A DNA stretch of 64,000 nucleotides from Tricharina praecox (Eukaryota), in assembly GCF_024521635.1 (NCBI RefSeq), contig NW_026250445.1, forward strand, positions 1-64,000, written 5' to 3'. A program made the position numbers and the translations under genes. Positions 7,535-37,308 of the stretch are shown here, one piece after another. Numbering within the stretch: the first letter of the stretch is position 1; every line of letters begins with the position of its first letter. A model generated the notes under the pieces. It saw only the letters and a program-made list of their open reading frames with translations, was not told the origin of the DNA and searched no databases.

Positions 7535-9288
7535 AAAGGGGTGGGGGGAACAAGCGGGGATTCCCGAAGTGGGCAAACGTGGCCATGGCATTCGGGTGTG
7601 CGCGTTCCCTTCGTTCCTGCATGGAAGGGAAGGGACACACCAGAGAATTCGGTACCTGCGTGGAGATTGATGCAGTCCGTGCCTTACGCCGGGGGAGAGG
7701 ATATCTCGTACCGGTAGAAGAGAATGTACTATGGAGTACCTAGAAGAGAGTAGATTCCGTCACTCTAGAGAGAGTGAGGACGTCGCAGTGCGTGGTCCAT
7801 CTTCCTTGTGTAAATACCAGGCCGAGTAGTAGTGGGTGGCGCATGTCCGACCGAACGAAATGAAGAGATTGATGGAGTGAGAGGTACGATACTATCGAGA
7901 GTATACTACTATGATGGTATAGGTACACACCCTCGCATAATAGGGTCAATCGAGAAGTTGGAGGGCAGCAGCGCGTACGGTAACCACGGCAGGGCACTGG
8001 GTCGAGTATGCGTGGCCTATGGAGCCGCGTGTGTACGTATCGCAGCCACTGTGCCCCGACACTGCGGTGGACTCACACCGGTCGGTAAGTACGGTAGGGT
8101 AGGTATATGGATACCTGGATTGAGTGACAGCCTCCGAGTGAGTGCATAGCTGGCAGCTGGTGATACCGCTGGGGTTCCGGCAAGCAAGCAGCAATCCTTC
8201 ACGTCGTAGGGAAACGGCAGCCGCAGTCATCGTGGCGAACGGGCGTGTCGATGTCCCATGGGCCATCCATCCACCCAGGACCGGGCGTAGTAAATATGAA
8301 ACGTTGGCGTGCTCGTACTTGCCTGCTTGCTTGCCTGCTGTAGCCGACCCCTGTGCCGACCGATTCTCCTCTCAGCACGCTGGGTTGGCTGCTTGGTTAG
8401 CCCGGGGCTTCTTGCCCCTTGTTGCTGCAACTCGCCCCCGGTCCCTCCCCGGCCCCTCCCTCCCTTGCCCGCACAAATTTGCACAACCGCACGCTTGTCG
8501 CAACAGGTTTCCAAACTCTGCGTCTCCGCAACTCCTGCTTCTCGCTCTTCTCTGTCTCTGTAGAGTACAGAACGCTGGGCCCGAGCAGAGGATCGCGACT
8601 TGCTAGAGGCGAGGAGAGTCGGTAGAGAAGAGTGGAGTAGGGTGGCTAACCAGCACTGCCACAAGTAGCGCTAGACTGGAGGAGAAGCGGCAATCGAGAC
8701 TCTGGCGTGTGTACCAGAGGAGAGAAGGTATCCAGCCGAGCACGGAAGACCTGCTAGCAGAATTGGGTATCAGCAAGTAGACATGTATCCAGAGTACACA
8801 CACAGCAAGCACACACACAGCACACGCACACCGCATGGAGTAGGTTGAATCGCGAAGGGGAGGGGCAAGGGAGGGGCAAGGGAGGGGCAAGGGGAGGAGG
8901 AGGGAGGTGCGAGGTGGGAGGGAGAGGGGGGTGAGCTAACCAGCCGGCTAGCAACTAGAGTAATCACAATTATTGGTGGGAAGGGGTCCGCTCGTCGCAG
9001 ACCCCCCCAGGTGTGGTGAATGGGGCCAAGGACGGGAATACTTTAGAGAGCCTTCCCCCCGACCCCGAGCCCAACTTTTCTCTTCCTTCCTCACCCTCAC
9101 ACACAGAAAGCCTTTGGAATTTCGCTCTTTCAATATTCCTTCCTTGAGCTTTTAGAAGTCGCCCACTCTCGTTTTCGCCGTCGTCGCCGCTACTTATTTA
9201 ACCCCCGACAACACTCCCAACCACAACAACAACACTCAACAATCAACCTTCACTCTCTACGCACACACACCGTTAAATAATATTCACG

Positions 9289-10451
9289 ATGCAGCTCCTC
9301 ACTCTCTCCACCCTCATGGGCCTCTTGGTCAGCTCTGTCGCCGCCCACTCCTGGTTGGAGTGTGTCGACACCGTAGTCAAGAACAAGGACTACGCTAAGT
9401 CCCACCCTAGCGACACACTGTAAGCAGAAGCTTCCCCCCAACCTTCTCGGAAACGAGAAGTTTACGAAGGAGAGACATCCCGCTGACACTTTCCTCTTAG
9501 CGTGCAAACCTGCAACGGATACCCTCGCAACAAGGTCCACAACGGTGACTGGATCTCGGAGTCGTCCTACTACTCTTACAACTTCAACACCGAATACGCT
9601 TGCCGCGATGGACAGCGGACTGCGGGCCAGGCGGCCGGCGCGCCCATGGCGACCGCGTCTCCCGGCGACACTCTGTTGATGCGCTTCTGGGGCAACGGTC
9701 ACTCCCGGTGGGACATTGGCTCGCCCAACCACCGCGACCCCGGTCTCGTCCGCATCTTCTGGGCCGGAAAGCCCGAGACTGAGATCGTGCACGCTACCGA
9801 TCTGACCGAGGAGTACTGGATCCCCGGTGCTCAGGGTAACTTCTCGGGCGACGCCGTCACCGAGATCAACGGTAACACCATGAACGAGAAGGCCAACTAC
9901 TTCTCGTTCGTCCTGCCCGAGAAGATCCAGAACGGTCGCCACATGATGGTCTGGTCGTGGGCGTGGAAGGAGTCGCTCGTCGACGGTGAGAAGGGTGACG
10001 CCAACGTGTACGACTCCAGCTGGGACAACGCGTGGGGTACTTGCTTCGACATCCAGATCGAGAACTCTACCTTCACTGGTAAGCTCCGCAATCCGCCCTC
10101 GTTCCTCCGCGAGTCATTACTAACATACTTCCAGACGAGGTGAACACCGACATCCTGTGCAACAAGGCCGGCTACGACAAGGAGGCCGCCACCAAGAAGA
10201 CTGCCACCGAGATCTGCTCCAAGACTTGCTACAAGGGCGGCATGGCCACCGACGCGATGAAGTGCACTGGAACAGACTGCCCCCCCTGCTGGTACATGAA
10301 CGCCGACCAGGTCAACTGCTTCGACTACGACACCACCGGCAAGTGCCCGTTCTCCGGTGCGTTCGACTGCAAGAAGGGAGCCGCCGCCACTACCAAGCGC
10401 GACGTGCTCACCCAGCACCGCAAGCACCGCCGCCACAACCACAAGAACTAA
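9289..10451 (+). CDS. Secreted LPMO-like (His-brace candidate) protein with Cys-rich C-terminal module, 341 aa
   Basis: Exons 9289-9419, 9501-10078, 10135-10451 (1026 nt, in frame; both introns GTAAGC..YAG). Signal peptide MQLLTLSTLMGLLVSSVAA followed directly by His (HSWLEC). Motifs GYPR, WGNGH, FVLPE..GRHMMVWSW, WGTCFDIQI. Strong C-ending codon bias. The gene is solid; the LPMO-like call is inference. Confidence 0.85.
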
Positions 10452-12505
10452 GCGTTCTGTGTTGTGTCATGAGTAGTCTGCTGTTTGTGTCTTGTTGTGT
10501 ACTGTCTTGCTAGGAATTGTTTGATTGTGATTTGTTGGGGATCTCGGAAAATATGTCTTTTTTTCGCTTCACATGTGTATTTTGGTCCGAATTGGAAATG
10601 CTTTGGTTTTGTTGCTTCTTCACGGCGCTCTGATTCCCTTGTTTTTGCGCGCTGTGAATGTATTTGACGGGACGGAACGGCTTTCCATGCTTTTTTTTCT
10701 TTTTCCTTTTTCTTTTTTTCTCTGCTTCGACGTTCATATATACAGATATTTATAGTGTGTGGTGGTGGTCACTGGTTACTAGGTCAGGTCAGATAGAGAG
10801 GAGGGAATGCGGATTCGAGCGGTCGTTGGCAGTTGTAAATGGTTTCGTTCTCGTCATGTTCGCTGTGAATCTGGTGATGTGTGTGATTGTGTTGTGTGCA
10901 TGAACTGAGCTGTTGAGCTTGACAGACAGAGAAAAGTGGCATGCTCGCAAACGGCCACGACTCCGTTGCCGAGACTCCGAGACACAGAGAGACCAAGGCT
11001 ATGCCTCGCGAGTCGCACGTCGTTGATAGCAACAAAGCACCATCTTCCGTCGAACCGTCGAACCTTCTCTCCGTCGAACCGACCATCTGTCCAGCTGTCT
11101 GATAGCCACGCTCCTCACTGCTCGCGAGTCGCGGCAGCCAGGCGGCCAGCCAGCCAGTCAATCAATCCACCCACGCCCCTCCCCCTCCCTCCCTCCACTC
11201 CCAGAAACCTCATTGAGCAGAACAGAGCTGAGCTGAACTGCACGCCACGAAAAGAAAGAAAAAACCGTTACAATCACACCACGCCGACCCTCGCAATCGC
11301 AACCGAAATTTGCAGCGAGCGCCACTCGCCGTCTCGCAGATTCTCGCAGATTCGCGAGCGAGGAAGTAAGTAGGTAGGGAATACTCTGCGCGCGCTGACA
11401 GCGTGACGCATGACCTGACGACGACGACGACGACGTTGTGGAGGGGTGTGCAGTCGAGTCGAATCGGCGTGTTGAGTGGAAGCCCCTTTTTTCTTCTTTC
11501 TTTCTTTCCTTTCTTGCGGTTCCTGTTCCTCTGCCTGTTGTGGTTCTTGGGCCTGTTCCTGTTCCTGTGCCTGGGCTGGTTCCTGAAGTCGACAAGGGGC
11601 TGTGCTGCTGGGTGTGGTGGCGGGTGGCAGGGATGGTTGACCAATCTCCGAGTGTCGTCGCTCGATGGCAGGGTGCAGTGCTCTAGAGTGGGAGACTGGG
11701 AGTTTGTGTGGGAGAGGAACGGAGGGGAGGTCGGAGGGGAGGTCGGAGGTGGGAGGTCGGAGGGGAGGTGTCTGTGCCCTACTCCACATACTTCACCTAC
11801 CATGCATGAGTGAATGAGTGAATGAGCGAATGAGTGAGTGGGTGAGCTCGACGACCGTTGGTGCGCGAATCGCGAGTCGCGCGACTGTTGGCGATCAATA
11901 AACAGATCTCGTGAGTCGTGAGTCGCGAGCGGCGACGAGTTGCGACAGCTTGCGAAACCGCACTCGGTACTGCCGAATCTCGTCTGGCTACATACCAGTA
12001 GAATTGGTAACCAAGGGAATATCGCGATTCGCGACACCGACAGAAAAGCTGGAACTTGCAACGTGGAACTTGGAACTCGAAGCAGGCAATCACCACTCGC
12101 GACTCGCGAGATCGTTGAATGTTGAATGTTGAAACAGCCCGGAGATTTGCGACATCGCCAATTCCAAATAGATGATGGATGGATGATGGATAGATGATAG
12201 CTGATATCGCTACCGTCGTCGAGCTGCCTCAATCGTGGGGAAGTGCCAGTACTTAGGCAGTAAGCGCCCTGGCGAAATACAGGCGGCGCGGCGGAATAGG
12301 CACCTGTCGCGAGTATCTATCACCCCCAGAAGAGGCATCACTCAACGCTCTATAGGTACCGGTAGTATAGATAATAGTACCTCGCCCCTCCCATTTCCCC
12401 CGCCGAACCAACCTCTCGCTCACACGCGAGTTGCCCGTGATCGCTCGTGAGTCGTGATCGTTCGTGATCGCTCGAGGGAGAACTTCCGGCGTCCGCTCCC
12501 CTCGC

Positions 12506-14465
12506 TTAGTTACAGCTATGGGCTCAAACTTCTCGATAGATACGCAAACGCCCGCTTCCCCTTCCGTTTCATTGATGATTGGACACTACCGGTACAGAGG
12601 GTACATGGGATAATAGGATTGGCACCTCCGCCGAAATGCGGATTGCGGAATGATGAGTGCGGCGGTGGCAGGTGGCAGGTGCGCGCTTGGAGCAGTGGAC
12701 AGGAAGTGTAGGTAAGGTGGCAGAATCCTGGATGCCTGGAAGGAAGACGGCGGAAATGAAACATGAAAGACTATGAGGAAGTGGAGGTTGTATTCAACTT
12801 CGAAGAGCCATCTGATATGACATGGCTCTCCTCCGCTGCCTACTCTACACGTTCGGTGTCACTCGACCCGGCTTGCCTCTCATCCTCCTATCTTATCAGA
12901 TCCTGCATCTATCCCACATGTGTTCCTCTCATGGTGGCGACAGACGACACAAGGGAGGGGGAGGGAAGGCTAGGGAGAGAAGGCTAGGGAGAGACGGCAA
13001 GGGACCTGGGAGAGAAACGAACTGGAAACGAAACAAAACGGTCGGTGTCGCGGCCGGGTGGCTGTAACTATGAATGTGGTTCTGTGAAGCTACGAAGGGT
13101 ACTCATACATCACACATCATAAAATAGCATTCATAATTAATGGCGGTGAATCGTCTCAAGCAATTGTAATGGCATTCGTCATCCACGGCGGTGAATCACC
13201 TCAAGTACTTATAATCATCCGCAAGCATTCGAACCATCTCCAGTTCTCCTCCGCTTCCCACCTCTGCCCATCTCCGGTCCTCCTCCGCTTTCCACCTCTA
13301 CACATCTCCAGTCCTCCTCCGTCTCCAGTTCTCCTCCGCTTCCACCTATGCCCATCCCCAGTCCTCCTTCATCTCCCAATAAATCCCCACCCTCTGCAAT
13401 TCATTACAGTGGGCGTAGGGGTCGTCACCACCCGCTGTCGCTTGGTTATCGAACTCGGCGAGAATTTTGTATTTGTGCCGGCCGCCACCATCCTTTGTGG
13501 CCGCGGCCATCCTCCGCTGAACACCAGTCATATCTATTACTTGTCAGCCCTCTACTACCTCTCGTGTCGAATGTGATAATTCTCGTACCTTCAAGCCGTC
13601 ATCGTCGGCATCTTGAGCTGGATAAAATCTATGCTCTTCGTGCGAAGACCGTATGCCCTCATCACCTCTTGTGACTTCTGAGTCATCCTGGGCCTCTTCT
13701 TCAGCTGGAGAGGGGTCGGACACAGCGAGCGGAACGTGTCCCGATGTTCCAATGACTTCCTGGTCTGGAGGAGACAGATCAGAATCCACAGATCCATCAG
13801 GCCGTTCGCTACAGGCGTGCCCGTCAGTACCCAGCGGGAATGGGCCTTTACAGCGTCGACGGTGTTGTAGTTCGCGCTCTCAATGCTCCGGATCGTTTGG
13901 GCCTCGTCCAGGACTATCAGTGCGTCGTTTCTCGGTGCGTCGTTGCGGTCGATGTACATATTCCGTGCGGAACTCCATTCGCCCTTTCCCTCAAGGACAC
14001 CTCGTGGCGTCCTCGGACCGGAAGAAGAAAATGCGAATCGAAGTCGCGGGTAAGTGAGAAGATGGGCCATTTTTGGCTGAGAAGATGAAGATGATGTTGT
14101 GTATAGAAGAGAAGAGGGAAGTAGAGTCGTGCGAACCGGTGAATATATAGGTGGAAACATTCCAAGAGCATCGAATCGGCGCTAGCGTGACGTTAGCGTA
14201 AAATTAGCGTACACACACGTGACCACACCCTACCCGTCGGCTTGAGTGACCGCTCACCATGTGTGATTATTCTGAGGGCTGTGATTAGAGAGTCTGTCCA
14301 GTGATCTAACAGTTTTACTCACTGATAAGATGTAACATCGCCGGCTGATGATGGGTGGTGATGGCTGGTGATGGCTGGTGATGGCTGGTGATGGCTGGTG
14401 GCTGGAGGTGCAGCTGCTCACTCGGTCACCTTATGTACTCATCCCACTTCGTCTTTGTTCGAAGA
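12506..14465. repeat. Dispersed ~1.95-kb repeat, copy 1 (direct copy at 55954-57893); putative non-autonomous mobile element
   Basis: Collinear similarity from ttagttacagc to ctttgttcgaaga in both copies, with unrelated flanks. Includes a (GGTGATGGCT)n tract near the right end. Confidence 0.9.
13591..14070 (-). pseudogene. SNF2-family helicase fragment (motifs II and III) inside repeat copy 1
   Basis: IVLDEAQTIRS...RWVLTGTPVANGLMDLW matches SNF2_N motifs II and III. No Walker A or C-terminal helicase domain. Frameshifted relative to copy 2. Confidence 0.7.
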
Positions 14466-18151: not shown

Positions 18152-21100
18152 ATGGCGCTGATGAAATTGATTTTGGCGATGGTTCTGGTTGTGGTTCTGG
18201 CCGGCGCTGCGGCCCCAGAACAGGTAGTACCTGCTACTTTGACCGCGCCGCCCGGCGGCAGTGATGAAGAAAAATATCAAGCTGGAGCTGAGTTTAATAA
18301 TAACTTGGTCTCGGATCTCTCGCCGTAAGGACAGCGTATTGCCCTATCATTTCTTATCACGCTGACGTCCTCGCCTAGACTACTCGCACTGTGATATCCC
18401 TCACATCCTCGCATTCGATGTTCCGCTTCTGACGAAATCGCAGCTTTGGTGAGCGGTTCGCCCAGCAGTTCATGAGCGTCTCCACTAGCTGGGTCGACAG
18501 TTTGATCTTCTCAATGGCTCCCTTGGGCGTTATCACCGCCATTGTCGGTATGCTTCACCGCGTTTCCAGCGCAATGCCCTCGTTCAAACTTCACGGTTGA
18601 CTCTCGTAGGGGCTATCAGGGTCGGCGGGCCATCGTGGCTGCGTGGAATTATTGGTCGAGCGAGGGAGACCCGTGCAGCCGCGGAGGTTGAGCTGATGTC
18701 ATCGACATCTCATGAAGGTCGGTCGGTCGAAACTAAAAACCGATGTGAGAGCCGGGAGCTTCGGGCTGATGCATTTAGTGTGCGAGATCTGGAATGGTGA
18801 TGCAATCGTTCGTGTGATGGGATCACCTCAAATCCAGCAACTTCTCTATTTCGAGAATGTTCCCGACAACCTTCTCGAGAAGATCAAAAAGCGGAGGTCA
18901 GCTGAGGGTAGTACGTCGACCCGGAGCTGTTACTCAGGCTGCCCGTCGGCTGCGGAATCGGGCACTGTGAACAGTGGTACTTTCGAGACGGTGCGAGATG
19001 TCGAGCTGTCGGAGATCAAGCAGAAGTTTCATGTTTTCACCCTCAAGGAAGCCGAAGACCTTGGGCTCATCTTCAACAAGTCGAAAGAACCGTCGAAGTG
19101 GGAGCAATGGCGCAAGTGGGTGATTGATCAGCTGAACAAGTACCTAGTCAAATATTGGAGAGAACAACGGGGGCGATTCTCCCGAACGCATGATGGCGAC
19201 GGCGGCGAGGCCGGCGATAAAAATGTCATGCACGTACAGTCGAAGTACGATGCTCCGAATATCTCGATGAATCTCAGTGTCCTGAAGAAGCCCTGGGAGC
19301 TCTACTTGGCTGCCGCGGTCGGAGTCTTGAGCCAGGCTGCTGTGATCGTTGTGGCCACCTATGCGGCCTATACACCCCACTTGCAGTTCAACAAGACTGG
19401 TCTCACAGTTCAAAAATACTCGTACCGTCAGTCACAAAACAGACTTCCGATTAATCGTGATGCGGAAATGCTGATCCAATTGTAATAGCGCTGACTTCCA
19501 TCGGAACCTTGTTACTTGTAACCGGAATGTTTATAGCGGCGTCGGTCGTAGAACGGAGTACCCACGAAGATACATACGAGAAACGCTCGGAAATGGTGGA
19601 TGCGAGGCTTTTTATATTCTGGTGAGAGCGGATAACTTGGGCGTCTTCACCGTGAGCTAGGACTGACCGAAATAGGATACAAAGAGGCCGTGTAATCAAC
19701 GACCAAACGTTTGATTCCTATGCGATAATTGCGGACGGCCCTGTCGATACGGTCAGGACATCCAGCCGTCAGCCATCTCACAAGGACTCGGACTCCCACG
19801 CCTCACCTCTCATGCGTGGGTTTACCGTCTTGGGAACAGTCACCTCGGTCGTGGGGTTTATATTCCAATTCATTGGTCTGCGGGGCATGCACTGGTGATT
19901 AAAGCCTTGACCTTGAAAAGTTGATGGACTAATTGAAGTTGCAGGTCGGCTTCAACAGCACAATTGGGAGCAACAATTCTCATGACAATTGTGAGGGCGC
20001 TCCTCCGTCGCGGAATGGCAAAACGACCGTCTTCGGTAAAGTTAGCAAATGAATTCGAGTTGGAGTGGCTCGCTACCGAATTAGCGAAACACAAGAACGA
20101 CTTCGGGTCACACTTCAGCAAACGCAGCAACACTCGAGCCATGCAGTCTCATGAGGATGAACATTCATGGCGCACGTTTAGGGTCATCACCGGTGGAATA
20201 CCTACTGATAAAACAAACGATCCCGGTAAAGAGTCGGTACCCACCGATACAACAGGAGGAGCACGGTGCTCCTTCCCAGCACCCGATATCCCTGATACAT
20301 CGAGACCAACCTCTCGCCAGCAAGTCAGTAACCCACAGTCCTCGCTTACTGTACGTAACCGACTGGGTCGGAAACCGTCTGTACGAAAGTCCGATGCGCA
20401 TACAGTACAGGAAAACTCCGACGGAACGGCTACGCCATCAGTCCAAGGCCAATATCGTATCCTTGAACGCTTGTTTGACTGGCTTCACCGGTCGGTCGGG
20501 CAACGACCTGCGGATCCAGTGCAGAAAACTCCCCAGGAAGCGCTCCTGAGCGCCCAGGACCTGGTGGATGTTCGCCAACGCGTCGGTCAACTTAGCCAGT
20601 GGACAGGTCCCGCATCCGACGCCGCAGTCGCCGCAGCTAATGCGATCGAAGTGGTCATGAACACGCTTTTTCCACCGAAAATCACATTATTAAAAGAGTT
20701 CAGTTGGCCCTTGGATGTTCGGATTGGGTGTGGTTGTAGCATGGAAGCCCTGGGAAGTGGTGGTACATCGTGCACAAGCAACCTTACATCAAAGTCTTCA
20801 GAGGACCAGCAAATCTTCCTTCGAGCAGAAGTGGTCCATAAGGATGGCAAGAAGTTCTGGCTGGCAAACGTCGATCGGATTGAGGCGCTATTATCGCTCT
20901 GGCTGCGTCATGCCCATGGTTCGGAGGAGGCAGCGCCGAAGATCGAGTCGGACAGCGGCAAGCCTGACACAAACTGGCTTCGACACAAACCACGAAAACA
21001 AAGCATGTTATTTCTGGGTCCTGACACCCTCCTTCTTCGCAGGGACCTGAGGTGGTGGGTACCAGGTGGCGCTGCCGGACTTCTGGAAGTGAGTATGAGA

Positions 21101-24100
21101 TCATCTGAACAGACGACTACTCCTGATGCAGAACCCAACATCTACCGTATAGATAGGCATAGGATCACCGGCCTCCATTGCCCAGGAAACTTCAATCTTG
21201 ATGACGGCGCGAGCACAGGTGGTTGCAGCAACGGACTCAAACTCATCAGCTTCGAATGCCGCACCTTGTCTTTAGACGACCCGGGGTCGACTCCTGGCTC
21301 CGATAAGCCGGCCGATATGGACCCACTGATTTCCGGTACCGGTCCGGAGACCACCGGTTCCAACGGTCTCGACCAGGCCTCCCGAGATACCAAAGCGATT
21401 TCACTGGGTGTAGTGACAACTACACCAAAAGAGTTACTGTTCGCGCAGCACATCTTCACTGCCTTCATGATGGCGGCCGCGACGAAATTGGATCGAATCG
21501 GCGGGAAGTCGGCCGCTTCTCAAGAAACGGCTCACAACCGTCCCTCCGCCTGGCGGCATTTCCGACTTCAGAATACGGTGATTGCCAAGATCGCGCTGGG
21601 TGTACAAAACGCTGGTCTCACGAGAAGCCTCGAGGAATCATATCTCTGCATCATTCCCCCGCTGAGCTGGCAGCACAAGCTTCCAGTTGGTGCTGCCGTC
21701 GACTTGGTGCTTCGGAATCTGGAACAGTTCGAGGATGTCCTGAATTGGGAGAAGTCCACGGACATCTATCTGGAATTGCTTCACGTAGCACACCATTTCG
21801 GCTCGCCTTCCGAGTGTCCCTTCGCCCTAAAGGCAGCGGTCGCCGTCGTGGAGTACTTGAGGAGGATAGTCAATACTCAGCAACTCTACTCTAAAGACCA
21901 CCCGGACTGGACGAAGTTGGAACTTCAAGCGGTGAACGTGAGAAAAGGTCTAAAAGAACTCGTGTGCGAACCAGTCCAAGCATCATTACGTTTGATATAC
22001 AAACACCAGGACCGAGGGGAAGAATATCAAAAGCTTCTCGCCTATACGGCGGACGCCGGAGTGAAAGAGACGCCGATGGCTTCCTCCGTTGGGTTTTCGG
22101 AGTTGCACGAAAAGATCTATTCCGGAAAACAATGGAAGCCGGAGGAAGGCATCAGAGACTGGAATGAGCAGGATATCCTGGGGTGGTCACCATTGCATTA
22201 TGCAATATGTCGGAATAATAACTGCGTAGAGTATGACTACCGAAGATTATTCACTGGGGTGTATTACGCTTGCTAACCGGCTTTTTTAGTGCTCTGATAC
22301 AGCAGGGCGCTGATACGGACCTCCAAGATATATCAGGTTGGACTGCCTTACACTACGCGGCTCGGAAAGGAAAGGCCGCCCCCGGAATGTCGCTCGTGAA
22401 GAGCGCACAAGTCGAGGCTCGCGCACGAGACGGGACATTTCCACTACATTGGGCTGCCAAACATGGACACGAGTTCGTCGAGGCGTTACTGCGGCAAAAG
22501 GCACGGGTTGATGTTCAAGATGCCACCAACCGAACACCACTGCATTGGGCAGCTCTGGCGAAGAATAACCTCGCCGTGGATTTGCTGATGCGGGCTCGCG
22601 CTTCGCGGGCCATCCTGGATTTTCAGCAAATGACACCTCTCCATCTTGCGGCTACCACTGGAGACCACGCGTGTATAAAGTTGTTGTTGGATGGCTCTGA
22701 CTTGGAGGCGAAGGACCAGAGCCAAAGGACCCCAATCATGCTGGCCGCATTGAACGGCCACAGGAAGGCTGTGGAATTTCTGTCGGAGAAGAATGCCGAC
22801 ATCAAGGCCAAGGACTGCGAAGGCATGATGGCACTCCATCTGGCGGTCTCGAGGGGTCACGATGCGCTCGTTGAGCTACTGCTTGATATCGACAGCGAAG
22901 CTCAAGGGTGTGAGAGTACCGATAAGAAAGAGACTGAGGGTTCCAGTAAGAAGGACGGGGAAACAACCCGGGGTGCTGACGAGATTAAGCACAATATCGA
23001 CGATACTGATGGGAAGCATGTGGAAACGACCAAGGGCATTTGCAACGTGTATAAGGAAGCCACCGACAAGTCCGGGCGGACTCCGCTCCACATCGCAGCA
23101 TTTTATGGCAGAGACTCCACACTTAAACTATTGCTCGGGAAAAAGGTCAACACGCAAGCGAAAGACAACGCGGGGAACTCGGCATTATACATCGCTCTAT
23201 TGAAAGGACATGAGAAGGCTGCGCGAGTGTTGCTGGACGCTGATCGCTTCGATATCCAGAGCAAAAACGAGGAAGGACAGACGCTACTTCATTCCGCAGT
23301 CCTGAGCGGGCCAGAGTCAGTCCAGTTACTGTTGACTTTGGGTGTCGACATCCAAGCCAAGAATGATATTGGTCGGACAGCACTCCATCTCGCGGCGATG
23401 AATGGGCGTAAAGAGGTTTCAATCATGTTACTGAGGGGTGTGGTAGAACAGGGGGGTGGGGTAGCAAAGGAAGGTGCCAGGGTAGACGTGAACCAGAAGG
23501 ATAACGGAGGGCGAACTGCAATTCATCTTGCAGCACTAAATGGCCATAAAGATATCATTTCGCTCTTACTCGATCAAGGCTCCGACCCGGATGCCATCGA
23601 CAACGATTCGGAAACGGCAATCCACATTGCTTGCGAAAATGATCACGTTTCGGTTACACGACTGTTACTCGACAAAGTAACAAGAACCACTATCGATGCT
23701 CAAAACAAAGCTGGACAGACAGCGTTGAACCTAACTGTCTTACGAGGAAACGAACAACTTGTCGATATACTCCTCAAGCATAAGCATCGCGCCTCGCCCG
23801 AGATCGTAAACGGCATCGGGAATACTCCATTACTCTCTGCCATTAAGTACGCGGTAAATGATGTTGCTTTGGTCAAAAGCTTGCTCGCTCATCGTGCGAA
23901 CACCGAACCACGAGACACTGAAGGATGCACGGCGCTTCATTGTGCCGTCGGAATGGGAAACATCGAAATCGTCAAGCTCCTACTCTCAAACAGGGCCGAT
24001 GTGCATGCCCGGGATAGCCAGCAGAATACAGCACTACATCTAGCAGCTGAGAACCTCTCTGGGGAGGCTGTTGAATTACTTCTCAAAAACGGAGCAGATA

Positions 24101-25593
24101 TAAACGCGCAAAACAACGATGGAATTACTGCGCTACACATCGCTTGCGAGATCGGTGCTGAAGACTCTGCGAAAAAGTTAATTGACCGTGGCGCCCGACT
24201 AGATATCGCCGACATAACTGGGAGAATACCGCTCGCTGTAGCGATAGTTGAAGACTACTACGGCTCCCATGTGGGAATTGTGGACCTTTTGTTACGATCC
24301 GGAGCCGATCCTTCCTCCACCGACAAACACGGCTGGACCATCGAGCACCTTGCACAATCACGAGAGAGGATGGTAGAGCTTCTCGAGGCTCACTCCAATG
24401 TTAGCCACACGGTGGATCTCACCATTCAATCTTCGACTATACCTTTACCGATCACCAGGAGCATTGATCATATACCCATAACGATACGTCGACCGACTGC
24501 TTGGAGCACGCGGTTTAAGAGTAAAAAAATCGAATTGGAAAACAATGGGCTCGATGCCATTTTTCCCTCGCAAGGGACCTACAAAACCAGTATCTATATC
24601 CGGGCTTTAGGCGTAGCCAATCATCCATTTCCTCCCCCACGGCCTCAGCATTCTACGGACGACTGGTCTCAAGGAGACGATAAGGTTTTCAATGCCTCAA
24701 CTTACTTCGAAGTTCGCGTGGTCGCTACAGATGACTCGTATGTACATCTCTCCATAGGCAGAACGAACGACCGAGGCTGACGGAGACAGAATCGTTGGTT
24801 TAGGTCTGTGTGACAAACCTAATGTGAACTTCGCCCAAATGCCTGGCTGGGACTCCCGCACCTGGGGGTATCACGGCGATGATGGACAGAAGTTTACTGG
24901 CGCTGGTTATGGGGATTTCTATAGTGAGCTGTATGGGATTGGGGATACAGTCGGCTGTGGGGTGGATAAACAGGGAAATATTTTCTTCACAAAGAACGGC
25001 GTGCATTTGGGTAAGTTCGCTGATAGTATTTCCTTGGTCTGCTCTGTACTGATACTGGAAACATAGGTGTCGCATTTACCGGGATCGCCGGCCAGTTGTT
25101 TCCGATAGTCGGCTTGTCTCTGTCAGGCCGCGTCACAGCAAACTTTGGAGCAAAGCCATTCAAATACGTACCAAACGTTTTGAATGCAGATACGTCCGTG
25201 ACGGCGGGTACCAAGCCGAATTATGAGAGGTCAGTTACAGCGGAAAGAAAGCTACGACTCGCCGACTGGATGGAGGAAATTTCCGACCTTCCTGTTGAAC
25301 CCCCGATGGTCATACAGGATGAGGGTACACCATTGGAAAGTGGTGGAGCAGAATGTCGAGAGGGAGTTCAAGGGGCCGAATCCGCGGACATAAACGAAGC
25401 AGTTGGGGGAAAGATGAATTCGTCTGCAAATGCGGGAGAGGGTTATCGGGATGATTGCGGCCAGGAGAACAGCCGCCAGGAGGATAATGCTACCGGAAAT
25501 GATTGTGAGGAAGTGGCTTCAGACCGGGCTGCTTCCCGCGGATCGGTTATCTTAGATATGCAGGGACGGTGTCGAGAGGAAGCGATAGTTTGA
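18152..25593 (+). CDS. Membrane-anchored ankyrin-repeat + SPRY protein, about 2292 aa, 11 exons
   Basis: Exons 18152-18324, 18379-18390, 18444-18547, 18610-18717, 18779-19426, 19489-19621, 19676-19894, 19945-22230, 22290-24737, 24790-25010, 25067-25593 (6879 nt, in frame, all GT-AG). Signal peptide, then an N-terminal domain (NNLVSDLSPLLALFGERFAQQF..MAPLGVITAIVGAIRVGGPSWL..VELMSSTSHEVCEIWNG) recalled from fungal ankyrin proteins, about 5 hydrophobic segments, about 20 ankyrin repeats and SPRY (MPGW..WGYHGDDG). Confidence 0.9.
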
Positions 25594-26446: not shown

Positions 26447-28216
26447 CTACCCGCCCGCACCCGCGCCATCCCCCGCTCTCGACCTTCTCGGTGGCGCCGG
26501 TACTACCACCATCGGCAAGCCAGGCAGTGCCTGCGGTACCACTTGCGGTACTTGTGCAGGAGCAGGAGCAGGAGCGGGAGGCGGGGCAGTTTCGGTCCCC
26601 GGCGTCCACGGCCCCTCCCTCCACCCGCCTTCCTCCACCTGTCCCATATACCCGCCCTGCGTCCTCCGCCGTCTCGGCGGCGGAATAATAGTTACCGGCA
26701 GCGCTGGCGGCGGGGGCGGGGGCGGGGGTGGGGGCGTGGTGGCCCGTAAGCGGGCGGTGGTGCGCTCCACCGCTCTAGAAAGCACGTCTCTGCGGGGTAG
26801 GCGCCAATTCCTGTTCGGAGTTGGAGATGGTGAGGGCGCCGGAGGCGCACGGTGAAGGGAAGCGGCGGGGTCGAGGGAGGGAGAGGAGGGCGGGTGCGAG
26901 GTCGAGGATGACGGGTTGGCTGTACCGGATTTCTCCGAGGGGTCTGAGTGGCTCTCCGTTGAGGTCAGTTGGCCGACGTTTACCTCGTACCTGGTGCTTT
27001 CGCTGGTGGCGGTGGTGGTGGTGGTGGTGGTGGTGGTGGGGGGTGCGCGCGAGTGACGGCGGCGTGGGGGCGGCAGCGGCGGGATGTCGTCGTCGCCGCG
27101 ACCGCCGACGAAGCGGAGGTCTTCGTCCTCGTCGTAGACTTCGCGGCCGAGAATGCCGCCCTTTTTCTCTTCGCGCTCAAGGCCTTCGATGCGGTCTACC
27201 CACTCCCATACGACAACACTGGAGGCCGCTGCACCCACCCATCGTATGTAGTCACCCCATCCGGCCAGGTCCTTCTGTGCGATGTCGACGATGAAGAAGA
27301 CGAGAGGGGTCAGGATGGAGGCGATGGAGAGAATGGCGACGAGGAAGATGCTGCGGCCACCGTACTTTTTCGTTCCCGGGGATGGCGCGGAAAAGGGGCG
27401 GTGCGGGTAGAAATACGAGTACCTCCGCTTGGCGATGGAGTAGTAGATCACGCAGCCGGCGTACATGGTGCTGCAGCAGATCTGGAATAGGTACGAGAGT
27501 GCCGGGATTGCGTCGAGGAAGGAGTCGGTCGAGGCCATGGGAGAGACGAAAGCCTGGAGGACGGAGAACAGCGTGTCCAGGACGATCAATGCGAAGCCCG
27601 CCCATTTGATGACGACTTTCTCGCGTTGCCGAGGGAAGAGGCGGATCAGCGTTTGGACCTGCGCAAGCCATAGGAAGAGGTCGCTGATTATCCGGCCGAT
27701 CTTGAGATGTATGCCGGCGACGACGCGGGAACGTACTTCACGTGCTTCGTTGGTGAGACTGTAGACGGACGATCCTACGAGGCTGTATTCGTGCCGCAGG
27801 ACATCGGTGGTCTCAGCGAAGGCGATGGTCAGGCAGATGCAAACGGCGAGGGTGGCGACTTTCTGGAGCCAAGGGCGCTCGTGCGGCGGGTTCGGGAGAA
27901 AGAGCAGCAGGAGTAGGACGTATGCGAGCGTGGACGTGGCGGCGATGGAGTATGCCATCGGGATGGTGCTGGCATAGAAGGGGTCGCGCAGTTCGGACGG
28001 CGACACTGAGAATCCGCCATCGTGGGAGGTGGTGGGTGTGGCTCGCGCGGTGTAGCAGGCGGGGGTGACGGCGATCTGGGAGGCCAGGACGGTGGTGGAC
28101 TCTTGCAGCGCGATGGTGAGGCCTGGCGGGAGGAAGTACGGGGTGCACGAAGCCGGCACGGTGACCCGCGCGGTTGTGGTCGGAGCGCGCCAGTTCTGTC
28201 GCGGCATATGGGGCAT
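26447..28216 (-). CDS. palH: pH-response 7TM sensor PalH/Rim21
   Basis: 589-aa single-exon ORF with family motifs RDPFYAST, RPWLQKVA, SDLFLWLAQVQTLIRLFPR.REK.IKW.GF, WVGAAASSVVVWEWVDRIE, GILGREVYD; multiple TM segments and a Pro-rich tail. Confidence 0.92.
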   Translation of the reverse strand: MPHMPRQNWRAPTTTARVTVPASCTPYFLPPGLTIALQESTTVLASQIAVTPACYTARATPTTSHDGGFSVSPSELRDPFYASTIPMAYSIAATSTLAYVLLLLLFLPNPPHERPWLQKVATLAVCICLTIAFAETTDVLRHEYSLVGSSVYSLTNEAREVRSRVVAGIHLKIGRIISDLFLWLAQVQTLIRLFPRQREKVVIKWAGFALIVLDTLFSVLQAFVSPMASTDSFLDAIPALSYLFQICCSTMYAGCVIYYSIAKRRYSYFYPHRPFSAPSPGTKKYGGRSIFLVAILSIASILTPLVFFIVDIAQKDLAGWGDYIRWVGAAASSVVVWEWVDRIEGLEREEKKGGILGREVYDEDEDLRFVGGRGDDDIPPLPPPRRRHSRAPPTTTTTTTTTATSESTRYEVNVGQLTSTESHSDPSEKSGTANPSSSTSHPPSSPSLDPAASLHRAPPAPSPSPTPNRNWRLPRRDVLSRAVERTTARLRATTPPPPPPPPPPALPVTIIPPPRRRRTQGGYMGQVEEGGWREGPWTPGTETAPPPAPAPAPAQVPQVVPQALPGLPMVVVPAPPRRSRAGDGAGAGG

Positions 28217-29208
28217 CGAAGGAATGCGCCTGGTGGGGAGGGACGGAGGTTATGAAGAGGGTTGGTGGCGCATAGAGGGTGGCAATTTGCGGGGGGGAGC
28301 GTGATCTGGCGCGGGCTGGAGCAAGGCAGTACGCTAGAGAGTCCTAGAGTGGCTCTGTGGTGATACGGGGGGTATGGAGACTGTAAGGGGTATGCTGTGT
28401 CGGTGTCTGTGTGGTCGTGATCTCGTGGATGAGTCGGTGTGAATGGGTTGTCGCTCTCCTCTCTTGTCCTCATGTCGGGATTCAAGATCTTCGGCGACGG
28501 CACCTGGGATGCGAGGGATGGATGACATGACGACGCAACTCCACCGGAAGAAGAAGCTAGGTAGGTAGAGAATCAGCACCAACACCATCACCAACAGCAT
28601 CTCCACTTCACCTTCACACTCACACAGTCTCGGAAATGCTTGGTTCGCTTGGCCTAACCTTCGTACAAGTTTATCTGCAACGTTCCTTTGACTTTCCAAC
28701 AATGTTCTCACCTTAGCGAGGCCGGAGTTCCCGCTTCCCCACATACTTGTGACGAAAAAGAAGGGAAGGGAATTCGTCTCCCGTTCTGTCACGAATCCGA
28801 ACATGCGATCCACGCAAAAGCTTGATTACTTTAATCGTTGATCTGGTCTAGGTACTCAGTACTGATTCTACTCAAGGGGCGGGTTGCACATAGACAAGGA
28901 ATAATTACCGCAGTCTACTGTGCAACACCTCGGCTCAGGACATTCCGTGTACGTTCCTCAGGCAGGGGGTGGTTACATGATGGAACGAAACACAAGACGA
29001 GATGGATGCACAACACAACTCTTCGTTACGAATAATTGCTGTTCTGCAGCAAAGTCTATCACACTCCACGCCTTGCTTTTGCAAAGAAAAATGATGTACA
29101 AATTGCTCACAGCGCAAACTCTCGTCACACTCTCCTATCTCAATGGCCTTTACATTCTGTACGTGTAGATCCGTCCATTCATCTCGCGGGGCTCGGAATG
29201 TGGTATAT

Positions 29209-31066: not shown

Positions 31067-34000
31067 ATGTCGGCCCCCGCCGCCTACGCGCTGCAGAGCC
31101 TACTGGATAAGATGTCCAACCCGGACAGCGACTTCCGCTTCATGTCACTAAACGACCTGTTGGCGATGCTCACGCAGAACCTGAGCTTCAGCCAGACAGA
31201 CCCCGGAACCATGAGCAAGCTCATAGATGCGGTCGTGAAAGCTCTAGACGATGCGAATGGCGAGGTGCAGAATCTTGCGGTTAAATGGTACTCATAATAC
31301 CCCTATCGCGGGGATTGAATGAAGCTAATAGAGGGCAGTTTGGGACCTCTCGTCCTCAAAGTCAAAGAAAACCAGATCGGCCCGCTTATCGACAGGCTCG
31401 CTACGCTGTCAATGACCTCACAGGACCCGTCGATCCCTTCGACCGCGCTGCGAACCATCATCACGAACCTCCCGCGCCCACATGCCTCGCCGGGAATGAA
31501 CTTGGCGTCCATCGCTGCACTGCACCAAGCACATGCCGCCGCCCCCAGTACAATGGCTCGGCCGGAGGCCACACAACAGGCAATCCAGACATCGGTCACT
31601 GCCGTGCAGAAGACGCTAATACCCAAGCTGATGATACTTCTCAAGCCGGATGGGGGCGAGAGCGGGAAGGCTACCGCTGGTGCTACGCTGGACAGTGTCG
31701 ACTTGCTGATCGAGACTGTCCGCTGCTTTGGGTCCATCATGTCCGGAGCCGAAGTGGAGAGACTGCAAGTTGCGGTCATGAATTTGGTCCAGAGCGAGAG
31801 GACCAGCGGCGTCATCAAGAAGAGGGCGGTTACGGCCTTGAGTTTACTCTGCGTTTATGCACCGGACGAGTTGCTCTCATCGTTCATCAACCACCTCATC
31901 GAGTCGTTCCGCGCCGAGAGCAAGCATGTCAATCCGGGCCGTCTGCGGCTGTTGATCTCGGTTACTGGCTCGCTCGCTCGCGGAATCCCAGAGCGGTTCG
32001 GTCCGTATCTGAAGACACTGTGCCCATTCATCCTTTCGGTTGTAGACGGTCGGGATCTGGAGAACCGTGATTTGGGAGATGAGCCGGATATGGAGATGGA
32101 CGAGGTTCGCGAGGTGGCGCTGGTGGCGCTGGAGAGCTTCCAGAGCTGCTGCACCGAGGAGATGAAGCAGTTCACCGACGACCTTCTCAACGCCGGCACT
32201 GTTTTCCTGAAGTACGACCCCAACTACGCCGATCCGGGCGATGACGACGAGGAAATGGGCGGTACTGCCGGTGGAGATGACGACGATGGAGAGTTTGGTG
32301 GAAGCGACGATGATGACACCTTTGAAGACGATGGAAACTTCTCGGACGAAGACGACATATCATGGAAGGTCCGGCGGTGCGCGGCAAAGCTGTTGGCGAC
32401 TGTTCTCGCGACTAGGGCCGGCGACTTGATCCGGGGATCCGGCGAGGGAGGCGGGTTGGCGTACAAAAAGGTGGCGCCGCTCCTCATCGACAGATTCCAT
32501 GAGCGCGAAGAGAACGTTCGACTCGAGATCCTCGCTACGGCCATCGTGCTGGTGAAGAAGACGGGAGAGGTTGCAGATGGCACGATCACCTGTGGGCCAG
32601 CTCTGAGCAGTGCTGCGGGCACGATGGCTCCGCCGCCGAAGAAGAGACGTGGATCGGACGCTTCGATGATGGATACCGATATGGCCCTGGAAGTGCCGTC
32701 GGTGGATGAGCACGGTGTTCGGGACAGCCTTTTCCAATTGGTTCCTCGGCTATCCAAGTCTGTCGGAAAACTGCTCAACAACAAGTCCATTACGCTTCCG
32801 ACTAAACAGGCAAGCATCGTTCTGATTTCAGCGGCTGTCTCGGTTCTGCACGGAAAGTTTGAGAGCTCGCTGAACATCTTCATCAATGCTCTCGTCGACG
32901 CTGCTGGTGGAGGTAATGCACTGGCTTCCGGTGGTAATGTTGTTGTGGCGTCTGCGCCTGGCGGCAGCGCTGCCACTGCGACAGGTGCCAGTGTTAGAAT
33001 TGAGGTTCTCCGCCTCTTTTCCAAGATCTTCGATAACCACTCTCTCGAAGCCGTGGAGCCATACCTGGCGGCCGCTGTTCCGGCTGTCTGCGCCGCCGTT
33101 AACGAGACTGCCTATAAGGTTTCCTTCGAAGCCTTGGGCACTGTCGCTTCAATCGCCAAACTACTGACTTCGCCTGGAGCCCCCGCCTACGCCGAACACC
33201 TTAAGCAGCTGTACCAGGTGATAATCAAGAAGGTCGAGAATGCGGATACGGATCTGGAGGTTCGCGAGAAAGCCATCGTCACGATGAGCATCTTGCTCGG
33301 CAGAACCAGCGGCAAGGCTGGTACTCTCTCGGCCGAATCCCGTCGTCACGCTCTGGACGTCCTGCTCGAACGCCTGAAGAACGAGACTACCCGTGCTAGT
33401 GCCGCCCGTGCTATCGATAACATCGCTAGGTCTGCCGGCGATGATGGATCAATCAGCGAAGAGTGGGTTCGCAAGGTCGTCACCGAGCTGGGTGCCCAGC
33501 TCCGCAAGTCGAATCGGTCGCTCCGTGCAGCGAGTCTGGTCGCGCTCGAGAGCATCGCTTCCAACCCGGCCCTGCTGCACCAGATGGACACGGCCAGCAA
33601 GAGCGAGTTGGTTGCGGTGCTCACGCCTTTGCTGGTCGTGGGAGATATGCAGCTTCTTGCCCTAGCTATTGCCGTCTTGAGGCTCATGATCATCAATCCG
33701 AACGGTATCACAATCTCGTTCGAGGTCATCAATGGTATTTGCAACCTTGTCAAGTTTCCTCTGGGTTCTGGGCTGGTACTCGAGAATCTGCTCAGCCTCG
33801 TCCGCACGATTGGAGAGGAGGATAAGAAGGGCAAGCGCAAGCTCATGGAGGAACTGCTCAAGAAAGTCGGTGTTACGGGAGATATGAGTGCTGTCGGCAA
33901 GGTCATTGCCCAGCTGCTTGTTTGCGGGGGCGGTGACAAGGGCGGCTTCATTGTCGGTGTCAAAGACTTTGTCGAGGAGTTCGAGACTGCGCGCGATTCT

Positions 34001-35164
34001 GGTCGCAAGTGTCTTGGATTGATAGTTCTGGGAGAGATTGGGCTCCGGATGGGCAAGGACTTTGACGTTCCGCCGGAGAAGTTTCTCGGACAGCTCGGGG
34101 ACGATTCGGATAATGTTCCTATCGCCGCGGCTGTCGCGCTGGGTCTCGCTGGTGCTGGGAATGTCGACAAGTTTGTTCCCGTCATCATGAAGAGGCTGCA
34201 GGATGGAAATGATAGTTATCTCCTGGTCCATTCGCTCAAGGAGATCATCACACATTCGTCGGCGGATAGCCTGAAGTCTTACACCAACGATATGTGGAAT
34301 ACACTGCTTTCCACCGCTGTTACGAACGATGATGCGAAAGCTGTGGCTGCTGAGTGTGTGGGTCGGCTTATTATCCTGGACCCGTACTCGTTCCTGCCCG
34401 AGCTGCAGAAACACATGACTTCGCCGCAGTCGGTGGTGCGGGGCTTGGTGATCTCGGCGCTGCGTTATACCTTCACGGACACGGACACGAAATACGACGA
34501 GCTTCTCCGCCCCACCGTTGTCGACTTCCTCGACACAATGCTGCAAGACTCGGAACTCGACAACCGGCGGCTCGCACTCACCACGCTCAACAGCGCGGCG
34601 ACCAACAAAGCGCACCTCCTCGCGGGCCCGGGCTTGGAGCGGCTCCTCCCGCGCGTCTACTCCGAATCCGTCATCAAGCCCGACCTCGTCCGCGAAATTC
34701 AGATGGGCCCGTTCCGCCACCGCATCGACGACGGCCTCGAGGTCCGCAAATCTGCCTACGAAACCCTGTACGCCCTGCTAGAGACGTCGTTCCATAATAT
34801 CGAACTGGACGTCTACTTCTCGCGCGTCATCGCCGGTATTGCGGACGACCACGATATCCGCGCCCTCGCGAACCTCATGCTCGCTAAGCTGGCGGTTCTG
34901 GCTAAGGAAGAGACGGCGAGGAGACTCGACTCCATCGCTGATACCATCCGCAAGGTGCTCATGGAGAAGCCGAAGGAGAATGCGGTCAAGCAGGAGCTGG
35001 AGCGCCACGCTGAGGGCGTTAGGGGAGTGGTCAAGACGGCGCTTGTCGTGCATAGAGAGGTCGGCGCGGAGAGGGGCGGCCAGAAGTGGAGGGGCTTCTG
35101 GGACTGGATATGTGCCAGCTGGAGGGAGCTGGTGACTGAGAACAGCGAGAACGAGGGGAAGTAA
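31067..35164 (+). CDS. CAND1: Cullin-associated NEDD8-dissociated protein 1 (CAND1/TIP120), 1348 aa
   Basis: Exons 31067-31287 and 31339-35164. Motifs DSDFRFMSLNDL, NGEVQNLAVKCLGPLV, YDPNY, DDISWKVRRCAAK, EREENVR, VREIQMGPFRHRIDDGLEVRKSAYE. Confidence 0.96.
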
Positions 35165-35651: not shown

Positions 35652-37308
35652 CTAGTGATGGTGGTGTCCCAGACTCCTCCTCGCAACCTTCTCCAGCGAC
35701 ACAGGGGGGCGGACCCACTCCTTCTCCCACGTCTCATTCCTGCGCAGCAGTGCCTGTGTTCGCTCGAGGTCAAGACCGAGCTGCTGGGCAACGAAGAGGC
35801 CGACCTCAGCGTTCTCGCGCGAGCCAGAAAACTTCTCGGAGCCCTTGCCCCAGCCGAAGAGGGTGACGTCAGCAGCGGTGTGGCCGCCGGTGGACCAGCT
35901 CACGCCGAGGCGGGCGGACATGGATGCGGACAGGAATTCCTGGAAGGCGGAGGTGTCGTTCTTCAGGGCGAGACCCTGGACGAGTTCCTCCTCGGTGGGG
36001 ACGGCGATGCCGTGCGCGGCGAAGATGGCCGTCTTCAGGTACGACTTGGGAGTGCTACCAGAGTAGGCCTGCCATAGCTTAGACAGCGGGCCGGGGGTGG
36101 CCTTCGCAGCCGCGAAGTGCTCCGGGGCGTACCAGTAGTCCGGGGCGCCATCGAGTTGGATCGAGCCGACGGTCAGTCCGCCGCACTCGTGGTCGGCGGT
36201 CGAGATCAGGATCGTGGGCGAGTCCTCCTCGTGCTCGTCGATCCACTCGCGCATGGCGAGCATGGCCGCGTTGTACGCGAGGATGTCGTGCAGGTGGCCG
36301 ACGGCGTCGTTGGCGTGGCCGGCGTGGTCGATGCGGCTGGCCTCGACAAGGACGAAGAAACCCTCGTCTGAGTCCTTGGTGGCACGGTACAGGTCGTTGA
36401 TGCCCTTGAGAGCCATCTCCTTGAGGGAGGGCTCGATCGCGGGGTTGCGGTCGACCTCGTACGACATGTGGTCCTCGGTGAAGAGGCCGAGGTAGGGGAG
36501 CTTCTGCTTCGAGTCGAAGCCGGCGCGGTCGGTGATGACGGTGTAGCCGAGGTCGCGGGCGAGCGCCAGCGCGTCGATGCCGTCGTCACGGCAGGAGTCC
36601 GCGGTGGTGTTGGGGGTGAAGAAGCACCGGCCTCCGCCCATCATGACGTCGACGGTGCGGCCGAGGGGGTGGGCGTAGCCGATCTCCTGGAGGGCGATGT
36701 TGGCCTCCTGGTCACGGTCCCAGACGTGGGAGGCGTAGGTGGCGGGGGTCTATCATCACAGTCAGGGTCATGCAGCACTCAATGGTAATGGGATCACTCA
36801 CGGCGTGGGTGATGCGGGAGGTCACGATGAGACCGGTCTTCATTCCCTTGAGGTGGGCGGCCTCGAGGACGGTTCCGCAGGGGATGATGTCGTCGTCGAC
36901 ACCGATGGCACCGTTGTAGGACTTGATTCCGCACGAGTAGGCGGTCGCGGAGGCAGCAGAGTCAGTGACATAGCTGTCGGTGGCCTTGGTGCGGACGAGA
37001 CCGATCACCATCTCGTCGATGGGCATCACGGTGGTGCCGTTGTTGGTCCAGTGGACGTAGTCGCGAGCCATAGTCTCACTGGCGATACCGAATCCATCAG
37101 GGACGACCTGGACAGAGAAGAGTCAGCATGAATCAACCAATGTTCAGGACAATAAGAGAGAACATACCATGATGAAGTTCTTGGGACCCTTCCCGTAACC
37201 CTTTCCATTTCCCTTTCCATTTCCCTTACCCTTTCCGTGGTCCTCAGCACTGGAGAGCGCCGTGAACCCCGCCAAAGCGATGACGAACAAGCTCTTGAAA
37301 TTGAACAT
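35652..37308 (-). CDS. Secreted alkaline phosphatase (Pho8/PhoA family), 514 aa
   Basis: Exons 37308-37168, 37107-36802, 36749-35652 (1545 nt). Signal peptide; motifs NFIMVVPDGFG, active site VTDSAASATAYSCG, RITHATPA, VEASRIDHAGHAND, TADHECGG, GHTAADV. Confidence 0.95.

Follow-up and report, generated by a model that had tools for sequence, protein, structure and literature searches.

What does a predicted secreted protein do that places one His at its mature N terminus and a second within its chain, as in a copper-binding histidine brace, and that carries a Trp where lytic polysaccharide monooxygenases (LPMOs) carry an axial Tyr or Phe? The question is raised by a locus of the cup fungus Tricharina praecox within the 64,000-nucleotide stretch of DNA that we analyzed (hereafter, the window; all features of the gene described below lie on its plus strand). 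A preliminary description had proposed a non-classical LPMO or other copper protein here, and the landmarks on which it built are in place: an ATG at 9289; a His codon at 9346-9348, which encodes residue 20 behind a hydrophobic leader and would become residue 1 upon cleavage; a WGNGH motif with its His at 9700-9702; FVLPEKIQNGRHMMVWSW at the place given for it; and NAWGTCFDIQI with a Trp codon at 10033-10035, three residues ahead of Cys206. In mature numbering, His20 is His1, His111 is His92, and Trp222 is Trp203.

The gene itself turned out to be larger than first described. The motifs lie at the positions given, but reading them in one frame requires the removal of an 81-nt intron (9420-9500, GT..AG, with stops in frame), and the gene continues past 10078: A second, 56-nt intron (10079-10134, GT..AG) is followed by an overlooked third exon with a Cys-rich module and a His-containing basic tail. 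We thus observed a three-exon gene (9289-9419, 9501-10078, and 10135-10451) whose joined frame of 1026 nt has no internal stop and encodes 341 amino acids, 100% the same as the T. praecox hypothetical protein XP_051334922.1 (P0039). Exon 1 encodes the leader, His1, and the start of the catalytic domain; exon 2, the body of the DUF7492/LPMO-fold domain (residues 44-237); and exon 3, a linker, the Cys-rich module, and the tail, stop codon included. We compared transcript-like contigs from four of six listed runs with the gene. In runs X1 and X2, from two studies, both exon joints were carried on one contig and both introns were skipped (that these runs are RNA is a guess, although the two introns are missing from them), and in the soil metatranscriptome X3 each joint was present on a separate contig, so that three runs (X1, X2, and X3) show the joint 9419>9501; run X4 held only pieces of exons. 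The longest spliced contig (X2) spans 9112-10685 with both UTRs, true transcript ends not being given by contigs. A two-exon gene with its end near 10078-10143 is ruled out by the spliced contigs. The strong codon bias reported earlier was seen again (GC3 0.865, Nc 30.9). Of seven further long open reading frames (ORFs) in the window, six have Nc values of 41.9-60.6, and the alkaline phosphatase ORF shows the same degree of bias as the gene studied (Nc 31.1). Contig depths were 1256 and 1763, a measure that cannot rank genes by expression.

The neighborhood gives no help on function. A Pfam scan of 25 window ORFs, which are exon pieces such that genes may be missed, returned no carbohydrate-active enzyme, and a reading of the region as a gene cluster was rejected, the neighbors being ankyrin, an SNF2 fragment, PalH, CAND1, alkaline phosphatase, and a Tc1-like transposase. 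The ankyrin-repeat regions at 3-719 and 18712-24780 have ends that look alike by eye, the second coming after long ORFs without a Pfam match. What may be a gene fragment, a lone piece of an SNF2-related domain, lies at 13591-14160 (minus strand), followed by PalH/RIM21 (26447-28249, minus), CAND1/TIP120 (31319-35164, plus), alkaline phosphatase (35652-36749, minus), a Tc1/mariner-like transposase ORF with HTH_Tnp_Tc3_2 and with DDE_3 below cut-off (39466-40617, minus), and a 1212-codon open frame that matched nothing in Pfam at E ≤ 1e-4 (44665-48303, minus).

A resemblance to an uncharacterized fungal DUF-type family had been suspected, and the family could be named: The sole Pfam match at E ≤ 0.01 was DUF7492 (PF24320), an uncharacterized domain of fungi and oomycetes, with 40.5 bits for the whole protein and 37.5 bits for exon 2 alone against a gathering cut-off of 27, and the top three ESM Atlas clusters were DUF7492 as well (0.94, 0.91, and 0.90). 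The impression that no classical fungal AA family fits also held for the Pfam models of AA9 and AA10; membership in AA9 (PF03443) or AA10 (PF03067) was rejected for want of a Pfam match at E ≤ 0.01. Two relatives, P0017 and P0033, have a precomputed PF03443 match alongside PF24320. With 40.5 bits, compared to 315.8 for a typical member and 135.6 for a T. praecox paralog, the protein is, on these scores, a divergent and peripheral member of DUF7492. NCBIfam returned 0 families for three proteins, and searches of PDB sequences gave nothing better than E 0.17, the best LPMO being the AA11 enzyme 4mah (E 0.17 with exon 2, 0.32 with a profile).

Relatives were collected by a word-index search (38 relatives) and by searching 1.84 billion representatives with a profile; of the 273 matches at E ≤ 0.001, the best 150 were taken up. 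Those named include Wilcoxina, Trichophaea, Sphaerosporella, Morchella, Tuber, Ascobolus, Rhizophlyctis, and Pyrenophora and, more distantly, Pythium. Homologs bear automatic UniRef names such as “Lytic polysaccharide monooxygenase” and “Chitin-binding type-4 domain-containing protein,” so the fold had already been guessed by annotators. The family alignment started from 201 sequences, 145 of which had at least 60% domain coverage and the last-strand Cys, and kept 136 upon removal of those at least 95% identical; in a FastTree phylogeny, the protein fell into a clade of 60 (support 0.88, midpoint root), with the other 76 outside it. The literature that we searched, beyond which lie most subscription journals and the internal X families of CAZy, yielded no paper treating DUF7492/PF24320. 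AA18 is named in the literature, with Santos 2025 among the references given for the family range. The “LPMO16” of Voshol (the An07g08250 group) has a stated range of fungi, oomycetes, and some Metazoa (PMC6950343); compared by stated range only, which overlaps, it may or may not be DUF7492, and the texts and four supplements searched contain no sequence of that group.

Two side observations concern other family members. The same genome holds a second DUF7492 gene, a distant paralog, on contig C36 (L001; G000:C36:175398-176015, plus strand; locus about 1329-2182), which has a leader, an H-S-W motif with an intron right behind it, NGH, and E-W-Y-T-S-C and lacks the Cys-rich module; with its ordinary Glu-x-Tyr site, it offers a natural control. 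The module-bearing type of DUF7492 gene was found in this genome in one copy. In P0113 and P0162, sisters in the tree and distant members of the family, DUF7492 is fused to cell wall Tos1/YJL171C domains, fusions that may stem from gene models.

The two His residues of the putative copper site are highly conserved. A 19-residue signal peptide ending in V-A-A (9289-9345) is predicted from hydropathy and the small residue before the His, and its cleavage would free His1 (9346-9348), which opens an H-S-W motif and which conservation and LPMO superpositions mark as the first ligand of a predicted histidine brace. The second brace His lies in N90-G91-H92 (9694-9702), with a conserved Asn two residues ahead (127/136). 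Conservation of His1 and NGH among homologs had been put forward as a check of the proposal, and it came out in its favor: H92 was present in 136/136 sequences, and His1 in all 82 that have a residue there (54 gaps). Because both are retained throughout these aligned relatives, the motifs are not due to chance. Within the clade of 60, His1 was found in 28/28 non-gap sequences, His92 in 60/60, and Asn90 in 60/60; the residue preceding His1 was Ala, Gly, Ser, Cys, or Thr in 66/66 non-gap rows of alignment A2. As far as sequence goes, the predicted protein shows two marks of the LPMO superfamily, a His directly behind a predicted signal peptide and a second conserved internal His.

The proposed LPMO fold was recovered by modeling. 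An AlphaFold2 model from a 77-sequence alignment (pLDDT 89.5, pTM 0.86) consists of a β-rich domain (residues 20-230) and a second small domain. Foldseek gave 16 matches at E ≤ 0.001, the 15 listed all being LPMOs, with TM-scores that are low (0.2-0.3) when normalized to the two-domain query. In an independent comparison with 48,161 representative chains, the first 22 places went to LPMO or LPMO-like entries (Z of 8.9-6.9 over 124-164 aligned residues, with rmsd of 3.4-5.0), and the first non-LPMO row had Z 6.4; a Z of 8-9 barely exceeds the 7-8 that the search tool deems common, and a Z below 8 possibly reflects a common arrangement. The highest scores came from AA11 (7p3u, 8.9; 4mai, 8.6), AA10 (4oy7, 8.8), and AA15 (5msz, 8.7), followed by AA13 (4opb, 8.0), AA14 (5no7, 7.2), X325 (7.1), and an AA16 LPMO-like protein (6.1); identities to LPMO chains were 6-18%, and no single family stands out. 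Since the Z-scores are modest, we place the weight on the uniformity of the match list and on the register at residue 20: In a second structural comparison, all 50 of the matches listed were LPMO-type, and 49 of the 50 began at model residue 20 and at the chain’s first residue, His20 thereby falling on His1. An LPMO fold with a His brace thus appears highly probable from the model, the fold being predicted with high confidence and the geometry of the brace following from it by inference.

We then asked where the Trp of the last strand (N201-A-W203-G-T-C206, 10027-10044) would lie. Alignment end points were carried along the unbroken last strand (218-230), no gap being assumed, and four structures were checked. 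Model residue 233 corresponds to 195 in 5msz, which puts residue 222 on Tyr184, the axial residue of TdAA15A (PMC5823890); 231 corresponds to 233 in 4opb, which puts it on the axial Tyr224 (PMC4338556); 233 corresponds to 230 in 4oy7, which puts it on chain residue 219, i.e., with a start at 35, on the axial mature Phe185 (PMC12186267); and 233 corresponds to 199 in 6t5z, which puts it on the axial Phe188 (PMC12377627). The family supports the same assignment, because members outside the clade show Tyr in this column, usually with Glu or Gln two residues before it, as in the LPMO axial motif N/Q/E-x-F/Y (PMC5320794). Together, model and alignment make it very likely that Trp203 occupies the axial site. 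Tyr or Phe fills the column in 102/136 relatives, and N-A-W in the protein studied here departs from that Tyr/Phe criterion. LPMO axial residues are given as Tyr or Phe (PMC13353379), and for AA15 as Tyr, Phe, or Thr (PMC5823890); in the literature searched, which leaves most subscription journals outside, we found neither a natural axial Trp nor an LPMO with its axial tyrosine changed to tryptophan.

The preliminary description had taken the Trp as the mark of an unusual copper site. Its axial register was confirmed, but the residue is not fixed: The column holds 33 Trp, 18 Tyr, 8 Phe, and 1 Leu in the clade of 60, and 73 Tyr, 3 Phe, and no Trp in the other 76. Even within one 90%-identity cluster of Morchella, M. 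importuna has Trp and M. sextelata and M. snyderi have Tyr. Given this repeated exchange, the site seems to accept any large aromatic, and the Trp is probably a non-coordinating buried aromatic rather than a new ligand; Trp as a fixed, defining ligand was rejected (33/60 in the clade, with repeated changes). The column required 12 parsimony changes, compared to a median of 13 over all columns and 0-1 at structural aromatics such as W3, W42, F139, W176, W178, and F207. Being no more conserved than an average clade column, it could also have relaxed in function, and these 12 changes and the one Leu are what a degenerate LPMO-fold protein, glycan-binding or structural and with a dispensable metal site, would explain. 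We consider such a protein very improbable, as His1 (28/28) and His92 (60/60), together with Asn90, Trp42, and Glu45, are conserved in the clade, out to a chytrid sequence.

A second change near the predicted copper, passed over by the preliminary description, concerns the carboxylate or amide beside it. Asn201 occupies the place of the Glu or Gln found in most family members outside the clade: Two residues before the axial aromatic, Glu/Gln was seen in 2/59 clade members vs 53/76 outside. At the same time, the clade has gained a conserved Glu in a subfamily-specific short helix, W42-x-x-E45-S46 (9550-9564; model 61-68), with W42 in 46/46, E45 in 43/46, and S46 in 43/46, as compared to 0/69, 3/73, and 4/73 outside, where the alignment of this loop is unreliable. 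According to Hall et al. (PMC10472438), more than 96% of AA9/10/11 have such a Glu or Gln, which may sit at either of two places in the backbone; SmAA10A uses the second, its Glu being mature E33 from an N-terminal loop (PMC12186267). On this pattern, we hypothesize that E45 is a relocated second-sphere Glu, a reading against which count 17 of the 76 outside members, which have Ala at −2 and no Glu that we could identify. The Pythium-type sequences (P0097 and its clade) read G-A-A-Y, with Ala at −2 and no second-sphere Glu/Gln identified, and form a further active-site variant.

These same substitutions raise the prospect of a histidine-brace copper protein that is not lytic, i.e., an X325/Bim1-like carrier or buffer, or an oxidase that produces H2O2, which its module would anchor to the wall and in which the conserved Asn90 or Glu45 could take a copper position and damp reactivity. 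The −2 Glu/Gln is gone in 57/59 clade members and the axial residue is freely exchanged; X325 and the AA16 LPMO-like protein are among the fold matches (Z 7.1 and 6.1), and in X325, which is linked to copper transport, the fourth ligand is an Asp (PMC10349129). Against this stand the best fold matches, which are the active LPMO families AA11, AA10, and AA15, and the rest of DUF7492, which keeps the E/Q-x-Y motif. A non-lytic protein of this kind strikes us as a less likely outcome, one to be kept in mind, and the balance of model-based evidence tilts somewhat toward lytic activity of the predicted enzyme.

The C-terminal region bears on both activity and substrate. Residues 264-315 (10215-10370) form a Cys-rich module with eight Cys and the pattern C-x2-GG...C-x-G-x2-CPPCW...C-[YF]...CP-[FW]...DC. 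A local profile found it in 33/39 clade members with a tail of at least 80 residues, in 0/21 that are short or fragmentary, and in 0/76 outside the clade. Among 216 proteins, we counted 97 distinct copies, in which C288 (97/97), C298 (95/97), and C307 (94/94) are nearly invariant and an aromatic occupies position 289 in 72/97, 299 in 95/97, and 309 in 90/92. The module follows the catalytic domain in as many as three copies (P0060 and P0209). It also occurs on its own, in two to four tandem copies and mostly with a leader, in Conidiobolus coronatus, Neoconidiobolus thromboides, and Entomophthora muscae. Seven such Entomophthorales proteins (P0092, P0107, P0108, P0131, P0156, P0161, and P0197) have two to four modules, no catalytic domain, and no Pfam match over cut-off.

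Exon 3 was modeled with a pLDDT of 82-88 over its residues 31-80 (mean 67.5). The module had no Pfam match over cut-off, a best E of 0.65 against PDB sequences, and no usable match in the ESM Atlas; Foldseek gave a best E of 4.7 and the 48,161 chains no Z ≥ 2, searches in which small domains are easily missed and which prove neither that a match is absent nor that the fold is new. Small size, disulfides, conserved aromatics, tandem copies, and a place behind an LPMO-type domain are traits of carbohydrate-binding modules (CBMs), and by this analogy we regard the module as a candidate CBM, which could represent a new CBM family. Uncharacterized X modules are described on LPMOs (PMC10154629). An appended module of Cys and aromatics is the usual architecture of glycan-acting enzymes, which argues against the non-lytic carrier or oxidase. 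The chain ends in a Lys-Arg site and a low-confidence tail rich in His, Arg, and Lys (10395-10448; pLDDT < 50 at 326-335). Lys-Arg sites of this kind may be cleaved by Kex2. The His-rich character of this basic C terminus would suit a copper carrier, and the hydrophobic GPI-type end that serves as the X325/Bim1 criterion is absent. The Lys-Arg site and the His/Arg-rich tail (10395-10448) are common to several Pezizales orthologs and some module-only proteins.

What the enzyme, if active, would act on may be guessed from its distribution and that of the module. Because the module is expanded in Entomophthorales and the gene kept in Tuber, and because two distant family members are Tos1-fused, a wall-type substrate appears likely, by analogy, once activity is granted. 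An active LPMO that attacks plant polysaccharides (cellulose, hemicellulose, and pectin) in saprotrophic feeding would fit the presence of transcript fragments in one soil metatranscriptome study (two runs), the module-bearing homolog in the chytrid Rhizophlyctis rosea, which is cellulolytic, and the family members in Pythium. We hold it to be unlikely: Tuber, a genus with few enzymes for plant walls, retains the gene, the module has multiplied in the insect-associated Entomophthorales, and a single copy of this type was found in the genome.

The reading that we propose is a secreted two-domain mono-copper peroxygenase of DUF7492, LPMO-like, that acts on wall chitin or β-glucan with a buried Trp, a relocated Glu, and a module, and as a whole we give it an even chance. 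From a transcript seen spliced in contigs, signal cleavage would free His1; His1 and His92 would hold copper as a histidine brace on the predicted LPMO-type β-sandwich; Trp203 would pack under the copper without coordinating it, like Phe in AA10, and might also be a protective radical sink. The carboxylate that positions H2O2 would have shifted from the last strand, now Asn, to the Glu45 helix, as conservation suggests and as in the chitin-active SmAA10A. The Cys-rich module would bind an insoluble glycan, to judge from its distribution most likely the chitin or β-glucan of fungal walls, be it in remodeling of the fungus’s own wall or in fungal remains. A broader proposal, that DUF7492 is an unclassified LPMO family of fungi and oomycetes of which this clade is an active branch with Trp under copper and a catalytic Glu relocated to an N-terminal helix independently of AA10, and whose module is a new disulfide-rich CBM class that insect-pathogenic Entomophthorales secrete as stand-alone repeats, is speculative, and we incline against it. 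What is already known is narrower: DUF7492 membership and, by prediction, an LPMO-like protein, placed in no AA family and lacking the axial Tyr or Phe.

Current research asks how LPMO copper is tuned by the aromatic at the axial site and by the second-sphere Glu/Gln; the combinations described are Tyr-Gln, Tyr-Glu, and Phe-Glu. In the clade, a single scaffold naturally comes with Trp, Tyr, Phe, or Leu at the axial site, and the Morchella orthologs with Trp and with Tyr would allow the effect of this residue to be compared in naturally occurring proteins. Activity, if true, would give a widespread DUF a function and probably define a new AA family; inactivity, if true, would add a new non-lytic His-brace protein.

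Compared with known systems, the protein shares with DUF7492 at large the H-[ST]-W start, NGH, the W-x-W strand, and the aromatic-x-x-C-F-D end. It differs in belonging to a branch with Trp, Phe, or Tyr vs a near-fixed Tyr and with Asn vs Glu/Gln at −2, in its W-x-x-E-S helix, and in a C-terminal module that 0/76 members outside the clade carry. X325/Bim1 and Egh16-like/TrsA proteins likewise have His1 on an LPMO-type sandwich (X325, Z 7.1). X325 is described as having the LPMO fold and brace without cleavage activity (PMC10952591, PMC10349129), with Asp as fourth ligand and a role in copper transport (PMC10349129), Bim1/X325 as GPI-anchored (PMC10154629, PMC10349129), and TrsA as another candidate LPMO-like family with oxidase activity only (PMC12377627); the protein studied here differs from them in its only Pfam match, DUF7492, the absence of a GPI-type end, and its larger domain with a module. 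In TdAA15A (AA15, 5msz), the His1/His91 spacing is near that of His1/His92, with Ala89 before His91 (PMC5823890) where our protein has the conserved Asn90. By the end-anchored register, W222 falls on Tyr184 of 5msz and Tyr224 of AoAA13 (4opb), with 13% identity and no sequence match to AA15/AA13, for neither of which do the cited passages report Trp. The AA10 enzymes (ScLPMO10C 4oy7, SmAA10A/CBP21 2bem, and PlAA10 6t5z; Z 7.8-8.9) resemble it in having a non-Tyr aromatic under the copper and, for SmAA10A, a Glu from an N-terminal loop, as proposed for E45; they differ in the lack of a PF03067 match, at 11-18% identity, and our protein has Trp rather than Phe and Asn at His−2. AA11 (7p3u, AoAA11 4mai/4mah, and AfAA11B) is 15-17% identical and combines Tyr with Glu at −2 (PMC12186267), unlike the Trp with Asn found here; it also gives the best fold match (Z 8.9 over 152 aligned residues, rmsd 4.1) and is the only LPMO with any sequence match (E 0.17-0.32), and it is, like the predicted protein, fungal, secreted, and begun by His1.
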